From the NCBI RefSeq assembly GCF_003334385.1, contig NZ_QOWN01000003.1: a stretch of 64,000 nucleotides of DNA; one strand, 5' to 3'. The number at the start of each line of letters is the position of its first letter. Positions within the stretch are counted from its first letter, which is position 1. Made by a program: the position numbers and the translations under genes. Source of the DNA: Escherichia coli (GTDB lineage: Bacteria > Pseudomonadota > Gammaproteobacteria > Enterobacterales > Enterobacteriaceae). Below, piece by piece: positions 10,502 through 10,791 of the stretch. Under the pieces are notes generated by a model that did not search any database, was not told the DNA's origin, and saw only the letters and a list, made by a program, of their open reading frames with translations.

Positions 10502-10791
10502 AGTTTCTCCATCACTGGTCGGTGATCAGAACCTTAAAACAGCGTAGACGCTTTTTGGGCTTTGTGAGAAATCTCGCAGAAAAAACCGCGAGTCTATAAT
10601 CCGACGTAGAACAGAGGGAAAGGAGGAACCCTTGCCGAAATGACTATCCATAGTGAGTCGGGAACGATCCTGTCCCCGTAAAAACATAATATTTATCGTA
10701 GCTTTAACAACTCGAAATTAGTATAGGCCGCTAATTTCAATCATACAACAAAATTTTGTTAGCAGCCTAAGTATAAGTATATCGATATAGA

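Follow-up and report, generated by a model that had tools for sequence, protein, structure and literature searches.

A conserved dyad upstream of the distal cfa promoter as a candidate SlyA operator, adjoining an incidental palindrome

The spacer between punC and cfa in the DNA analysed here (one stretch of 64 kb from Escherichia coli, referred to as the window) is a complete and largely known cfa control region, but a 12-bp dyad located at -57 to -46 relative to the distal start of cfa is probably an operator for a SlyA dimer that modulates the distal promoter P1, the perfect 14-bp palindrome next to it being incidental. Judged from the alignment of homologous loci, the element under selection is this dyad, which had been overlooked in a previous reading of the same DNA without database searches (the sequence-only reading), and which adjoins the palindrome that was described there.

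The spacer occupies positions 10502-10791, and its 290 bp were indeed found to be non-coding, extending from the cfa start to the TGA stop codon (10794..10792) of punC (ydhC). Both cfa (10501..9353, ORF and MG1655 annotation) and the upstream ORF (12003..10792, annotated as punC in MG1655) are read from the minus strand, and the features of the spacer are given below on that strand in the direction of cfa transcription. The locus is that of E. coli, with 100% identity to K-12 MG1655 over the spacer, and of 5426 complete E. coli genomes 5425 carry the punC-cfa spacer; at least three changes across the 290 bp are present in 1444 E. coli genomes, and a 60-nt core around P1 (10716-10775) is identical in 5399 of the 5425. 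A general scan for promoters and terminators over 10300-11000 gave no matches, no intrinsic terminator for punC being predicted within this region, and P1 is missed by the scan because its -35 hexamer matches in only three of six positions, which is no argument against the promoter. Rfam covariance models run on both strands of 10400-10900 gave no match at E ≤ 1. For comparison, the best 80 cfa loci were aligned (at least 86% identity, all Enterobacteriaceae, about 30 genera), which together with the window makes 81 sequences.

The cfa gene has a σ70-dependent distal promoter giving a 5' UTR of 212 nt and a σS-dependent proximal promoter giving a UTR of 34 nt, and RNase E cleaves the sequence GG|AUUAU in the leader between -100 and -99 (PMC6755755). 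The published landmarks (PMC6755755; PMC12691595) were converted to window positions with the A of the ATG at 10501. Independent landmarks fell on the expected bases, and the distal σ70 start (TSS1) is therefore placed at 10713 and the proximal start (TSS2, P2) at 10535, the long leader covering 10713..10502 from TSS1 to the ATG. The sequence-only reading had suggested a long leader with two promoters and control by small RNAs; this was correct and already published (PMC6755755; PMC12691595), but the leader is 212 nt and not the whole 290 bp. Instead of a single start near the ATG, which was the outcome that would have spoken against that suggestion, there are the two published starts at 10713 and 10535.

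Upstream of the published TSS1 the sequence TTGTAT-17 bp-TATACT forms a properly placed σ70 promoter, with the -35 hexamer at 10748..10743 (TTGAAT in most other genera) and the -10 hexamer at 10725..10720, 7 nt upstream of the start. Across the best 80 loci the -10 hexamer is TATACT in 77 and TATAGT in three, and the -35 hexamer follows TTG-N-(A/T)-N throughout, the TTG being invariant. The P2 block is nearly invariant across genera in the same best 80 loci. Its -10 element, TCTACGCT, is one that we take to fit the σS consensus. This element was read from the sequence at 10548..10541 and precedes TSS2 and its 34-nt UTR (PMC6755755).

When the leader was examined with the same conversion, the Hfq-binding region (-195..-161 from the ATG; PMC6755755) was located at 10696..10662 and the stem-loop +78..+97, in which CpxQ pairs with the 5' half, at 10636..10617 (PMC12691595; PMC6755755). 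The compensatory position for CpxQ, G-135, falls on the G at 10636 (PMC6755755), and G78, G79 and C80 fall on 10636, 10635 and 10634 (PMC12691595). At 10628..10613 lies TTCCTCCTTTCCCTCT (+86..+101, with G on both flanks; PMC12691595), the CU-rich 16-nt core of rut, followed by the compensatory position for RydC, G-101, on the G at 10602 and the RNase E cut at 10601|10600 (both PMC6755755). RNAduplex runs of the RydC seed against the leader gave the best pairing at 10610..10600 (-19.5 kcal/mol, shuffled targets -13.7 ± 2.4), and this stretch, TCTACGTCGGA, contains the position of the published compensatory mutation G-101C and constitutes the RydC/ArrS pairing site. In the alignment of the best 80 loci the rut core and the RydC site are strongly conserved. 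The 5' sequence of RydC that was used matched 100% over 47 nt as a single copy in 5416 E. coli genomes. The sRNA sites that could not be placed by eye in the sequence-only reading are thus those of RydC/ArrS (10610..10600) and of CpxQ (about 10636).

Covariation also revealed a leader hairpin, CTCGCGG-loop-CTGCGAG (+122..+141; 10592..10573), with all seven stem pairs kept in 74-81 of the 81 sequences around a variable loop, and with compensatory changes at 10589:10576 (A-T 50, G-T 25, G-C 5) and 10586:10579 (G-C 70, A-T 8). It is situated between the RydC site and the σS promoter, near +138, and a boundary at +138 in the cfa leader is required for Rho dependence (PMC12691595). A leader peptide was considered and rejected, the 53-codon ATG ORF at 10687..10526 having no Shine-Dalgarno sequence by eye and a length that is not conserved (longest leader ORF from <10 to 59 aa, in 10-aa bins, across the best 80 loci).

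Upstream of P1 the alignment shows the dyad TTAG-N3-GCTAA, TTAGGCTGCTAA (TTAGCAGCCTAA on the plus strand), at 10770..10759, that is at -57..-46 with its centre at -51.5, overlapping the palindrome by two bases. In the best 80 loci the arms TTAG and CTAA are both perfect in 77, and positions 1-4 (T80, T79, A80, G80) and 8-12 (G79, C80, T80, A80, A78) are essentially invariant, with positions 5-7 variable. The conservation is not symmetric, since G8 is invariant (79/80) and its symmetry partner at position 5 is C in only 43 of the 80. The distance from the dyad to the -10 hexamer is 45 bp in 68, 44 bp in nine and 43 bp in three of the best 80 loci. In 485 kb of cfa-locus DNA the pattern TTAG-N4-CTAA occurs 77 times, every one of them at the dyad.

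The consensus sequence of SlyA operators is TTAGCAAGCTAA, refined by mutagenesis to TTA-N6-TAA (PMC5797941; PMC2156107). The cfa dyad (TTAGCAGCCTAA) matches it in 10 of 12 positions, with both mismatches in the centre and with TTA-N6-TAA satisfied, and among the best 80 loci the match is 12/12 in 10, 11/12 in 40, 10/12 in 20 and 9/12 in 10. The gene slyA itself is located in the same window, 20 kb from cfa (31156..31596, plus strand; NCBIfam NF002926 'transcriptional regulator SlyA', 277 bits with a cut-off of 120), and its product is a MarR-family regulator; 11 bp upstream of it, at 31134..31145 on the plus strand, lies the canonical operator TTAGCAAGCTAA (PMC5797941, Table 3). Three matches to TTAG-N4-CTAA are present in the 64-kb window, compared with 0.52 expected, and when TTA-N6-TAA is combined with at least 10/12 only the cfa dyad and the operator of slyA itself are retained. 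The third TTAG-N4-CTAA match, TTAGTGAACTAA (7608-7619), is situated inside the coding region of mdtK and probably due to chance. Matches to the consensus with at most two mismatches number four in the window with 5.0 expected; the 10/12 match in a single genome is therefore not significant, and the argument rests on the conservation and on the genomic SELEX data described below. As a measure of how degenerate known sites can be, the footprinted SlyA sites of hlyE match the consensus in 6-8 of 12 positions (PMC2156107), and the other candidate sites of Table 3 in PMC5797941, from EMSA-positive E. coli promoter fragments, reach at most 8/12 by our own count. Within the spacer one further 12-mer resembles the consensus, namely box 2, TTAGCGGCCTAT (8/12; 10734..10723, -21..-10), which overlaps the -10 hexamer and is conserved in GGCCTAT only; none other exceeds 8/12.

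After the prediction had been made from the motif, the spacer was encountered in a genomic SELEX study with purified E. coli SlyA (Yoshida, Shimada, Ishihama et al.), in which Table S4E comprises 56 sites and 80 targets (PMC6134199). The row 'ydhC > > cfa' is found in this in vitro table, which resolves to the spacer and carries neither coordinate nor peak height, and the main text is silent on cfa; leuO, hlyE, slyA/ydhI ('autogeneous regulation'), fimB and fecI are also in the list (PMC6134199). Since 56 sites correspond, by a rough estimate, to 1-2% of the K-12 spacers, the entry for cfa is unlikely to be a coincidence. In K-12 chemostats cfa was not among the operons changed at least 2-fold by SlyA overproduction (PMC5797941), the accessible part of the supplements to a study of a Salmonella slyA mutant (PMC5001712) held no cfa entry, and a search of the literature for SlyA together with cfa or cyclopropane gave no report of slyA-dependent cfa expression. 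In the literature searched, a single line of a supplementary table thus appears to be the only record of the candidate operator at cfa, which is otherwise uncharacterised there.

From these observations we infer that SlyA would bind at the dyad 12-mer, rather than elsewhere in the spacer, and change the activity of P1, a dimer on -57..-46 modulating initiation there. As for the direction, a positive effect would be favoured, tentatively and partly by analogy, because neither hexamer is covered by the operator, which sits near the position of site Ia of hlyE and precedes a poor -35 hexamer. Nearly as likely would be classical repression of the MarR type, a possible though somewhat doubtful reading according to which dimers on the dyad and on box 2 occlude the contacts of α-CTD and σ, and the repression is relieved by aromatic carboxylates of the salicylate type. 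It is favoured by the repression of slyA and ydhI by SlyA in vitro, which salicylate relieves (PMC6401476), and by the position of box 2 over the -10 hexamer, where GGCCTAT is conserved with no obvious promoter reason; the well-conserved operator, however, overlaps neither hexamer, conservation does not extend to the TTAG half of box 2, and SlyA overproduction did not lower cfa at least 2-fold (PMC5797941). The GGCC before the -10 hexamer (10726-10729), which is the conserved half of box 2, is nearly invariant (G65-70, C80, C74 of the best 80 loci). The spacer of a σ70 promoter normally needs no GGCC.

The dyad could also serve another dimeric protein, of the MarR family or otherwise, with the SELEX signal arising from a general preference of SlyA for A/T-rich stretches at other places in the spacer. 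Such a reading, which we regard as improbable, would agree with the degenerate, A/T-rich nature of the known SlyA sites (6-8/12), with the missing response of cfa to SlyA overproduction (PMC5797941) and with the asymmetric conservation at positions 5 and 8, but it leaves the exact SlyA consensus in 10 genomes and 11/12 in 40 more of the best 80 loci to be accounted for, as well as the lack of any further 12-mer above 8/12 in the spacer. When other regulators were considered, PunR was disfavoured because no TTAG-N4-CTAA is present in the punR-punC spacer. Among other motifs compared, that of FabR has GCTAACA in common with one half-site, its other half and its CACGTG centre being absent; the GAD box of GadE shows a likeness (TTAGG...ATTTTGTT) in E. 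coli only and with the wrong spacing; the CTAAT dyads of GcvA have the wrong orientation, and neither σ54 nor PurR fits the conserved columns. We know of no other E. coli regulator whose motif fits TTAGC-NN-GCTAA, which also counts against another protein at this site.

The palindrome itself, AACAAAATTTTGTT, is perfect over 14 bp and located at 10747..10760 exactly as the sequence-only reading had given it. It is not an element of the leader, as had been implied there, but is situated upstream of TSS1 (10713), at -47..-34 of P1 with its centre at -40.5, and lies outside both cfa transcripts, a location which that reading had itself named as one half of what would count against its proposal. 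An A/T tract makes up its middle, with the final two base pairs of the dyad on one side and the initial two of the -35 hexamer on the other. Using shuffles that preserve dinucleotides, 5.1 perfect palindromes of at least 14 bp were expected in the 64-kb window and seven were found, and for at least 12 bp the numbers were 19.5 and 20; for the 290-bp spacer alone the probability of one of at least 14 bp is 0.024. In the alignment it is perfect in five of the 81 sequences, all from Escherichia (the window and four Escherichia genomes), and the other sequences have an A+T-rich but asymmetric tract from the dyad to the -35 hexamer, as in AACAATTTTCTGTT. The A+T fraction of the tract is 0.8 in E. 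coli and on average 0.75 across genera, its sequence being conserved only as T-richness, and the Enterobacter-type tract AATTTTCT has an A+T content equal to that of AAAATTTT and no symmetry.

Judged from this comparison, the palindrome is a chance symmetry confined to Escherichia and no independent element, with no sign of selection on the symmetry as such. It consists of the A/T-rich tract at -45..-36 of P1 and two bases from each conserved neighbour, three substitutions in Escherichia alone having produced an accidental symmetry. The tract probably assists the poor -35 hexamer in the manner of a proximal UP-element site, the AAAA at -44..-41 being one that we take to fit the proximal subsite reportedly described for σ70 promoters by Estrem et al. 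in 1999. Very unlikely is an operator role for the palindrome itself in Escherichia, for a dimeric transcription factor acting as a class II-like activator or as a repressor occluding the -35 hexamer: its perfect 14-bp symmetry, its centre at -40.5 with overlap of the -35 hexamer and its invariance within E. coli would suit such a protein, but palindromes of this length arise at chance frequency, the loci of other genera lack the symmetry while keeping the rest of the promoter, and the invariance in E. coli extends over the whole 60-nt core.

Other palindromes in the window were recorded during the same count. A second one in the spacer, TATATCGATATA (10778-10789, -76..-65 of TSS1), follows the stop codon of punC at a distance of 2 bp and is found in some Escherichia sequences only; E. 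coli L002 already carries a changed version, and other genera have not conserved it. The longest perfect palindromes of the window are TTTCCTCAGCGCTGAGGAAA (20 bp, 48787-48806) and CCCTGAAATTTCAGGG (16 bp, 832-847). Two related perfect palindromes, GATAAAACGTTTTATC (16 bp, 52682-52697) and TAAAACGTTTTA (12 bp, 52762-52773), are 80 bp apart and resemble operators of the LacI family; the region 52682-52773 is presumably the MalI operator region of malI/malX.

Hardly credible is an RNA hairpin that pairs the dyad with box 2 in read-through transcripts of punC, marking or stabilising the 3' end of punC. In its favour, E. coli 10800..10714 folds at -16.4 kcal/mol (z = -2.8) with an 11-bp stem between the boxes, and punC is without a predicted intrinsic terminator. 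It was rejected on comparative pairing counts (74.1% paired compared with 72.6% in column shuffles, for 78 distinct sequences), three of the 11 pairs being unpaired in most genomes; two similar near-palindromes, moreover, are in any case expected to pair. The same stem was also rejected as a punC terminator, lacking a U-tract and not being conserved.

Membranes are made more resistant to acid and oxidative stress by CFA synthase, which has also been linked to virulence. The leader of cfa is already known and the palindrome is ordinary; the eye-catching perfect symmetry is noise, and the signal is the neighbouring imperfect dyad, visible only by comparison across genomes. The regulation of cfa is a model for control of a long leader by multiple sRNAs and Rho, and previous work starts at the +1 of P1, with P1 assumed to be unregulated. 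It may be, although we put this forward with reserve, that P1 of cfa is an ancestral direct target of SlyA across the Enterobacteriaceae. If so, a transcription-factor input would be added to a gene so far placed under σS, five sRNAs, Rho and proteolysis, and the signals of SlyA (aromatic carboxylates, a reported ppGpp dependence and intracellular growth) would be coupled to the cyclopropanation of membrane lipids. Outside slyA no consensus SlyA operator would then be better conserved than the cfa site, which is placed before a core-genome gene rather than a horizontally acquired gene silenced by H-NS. The conserved core-genome targets of SlyA would no longer be limited to slyA and ydhIJK, a point of relevance to the question of how a lineage of MarR-type repressors gave rise to a countersilencer.

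The cfa control region is said to have been described earlier by Wang and Cronan (1994) and by Frohlich (2013). Compared with the more recent publications (Bianco 2019, PMC6755755; PMC12691595), the P1 and P2 leaders, the RydC/ArrS site at the RNase E cut, the CpxQ site, rut and the Hfq region are the same here. In the published studies the leader was driven from PBAD or P1 was taken as constitutive, nothing upstream of +1 was analysed, and both the dyad and the palindrome are unmentioned (PMC6755755; PMC12691595). The A/T-rich tract at about -46..-38, directly upstream of a weak -35 hexamer, resembles the proximal subsite of an UP element, but in other genera it is T-rich rather than an A-tract and cfa has no distal subsite. 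With the operator in the slyA promoter (Stapleton 2002, as far as it is quoted in PMC5797941) the cfa dyad shares the length of 12 bp, identical TTAG and CTAA arms and TTA-N6-TAA, and in 10 other genomes of the best 80 loci the cfa version is exactly TTAGCAAGCTAA; the slyA operator, in contrast, is situated just upstream of the start codon and serves autorepression, whereas at cfa the site precedes the -35 hexamer of a core-genome biosynthetic gene. In position the cfa dyad is closest to SlyA site Ia of hlyE (-61..-50), which likewise lies just upstream of the -35 hexamer and where binding of SlyA is compatible with RNA polymerase and has a positive effect, but that site matches the consensus in 8 of 12 positions and belongs to a horizontally acquired gene silenced by H-NS, which SlyA displaces (PMC2156107).
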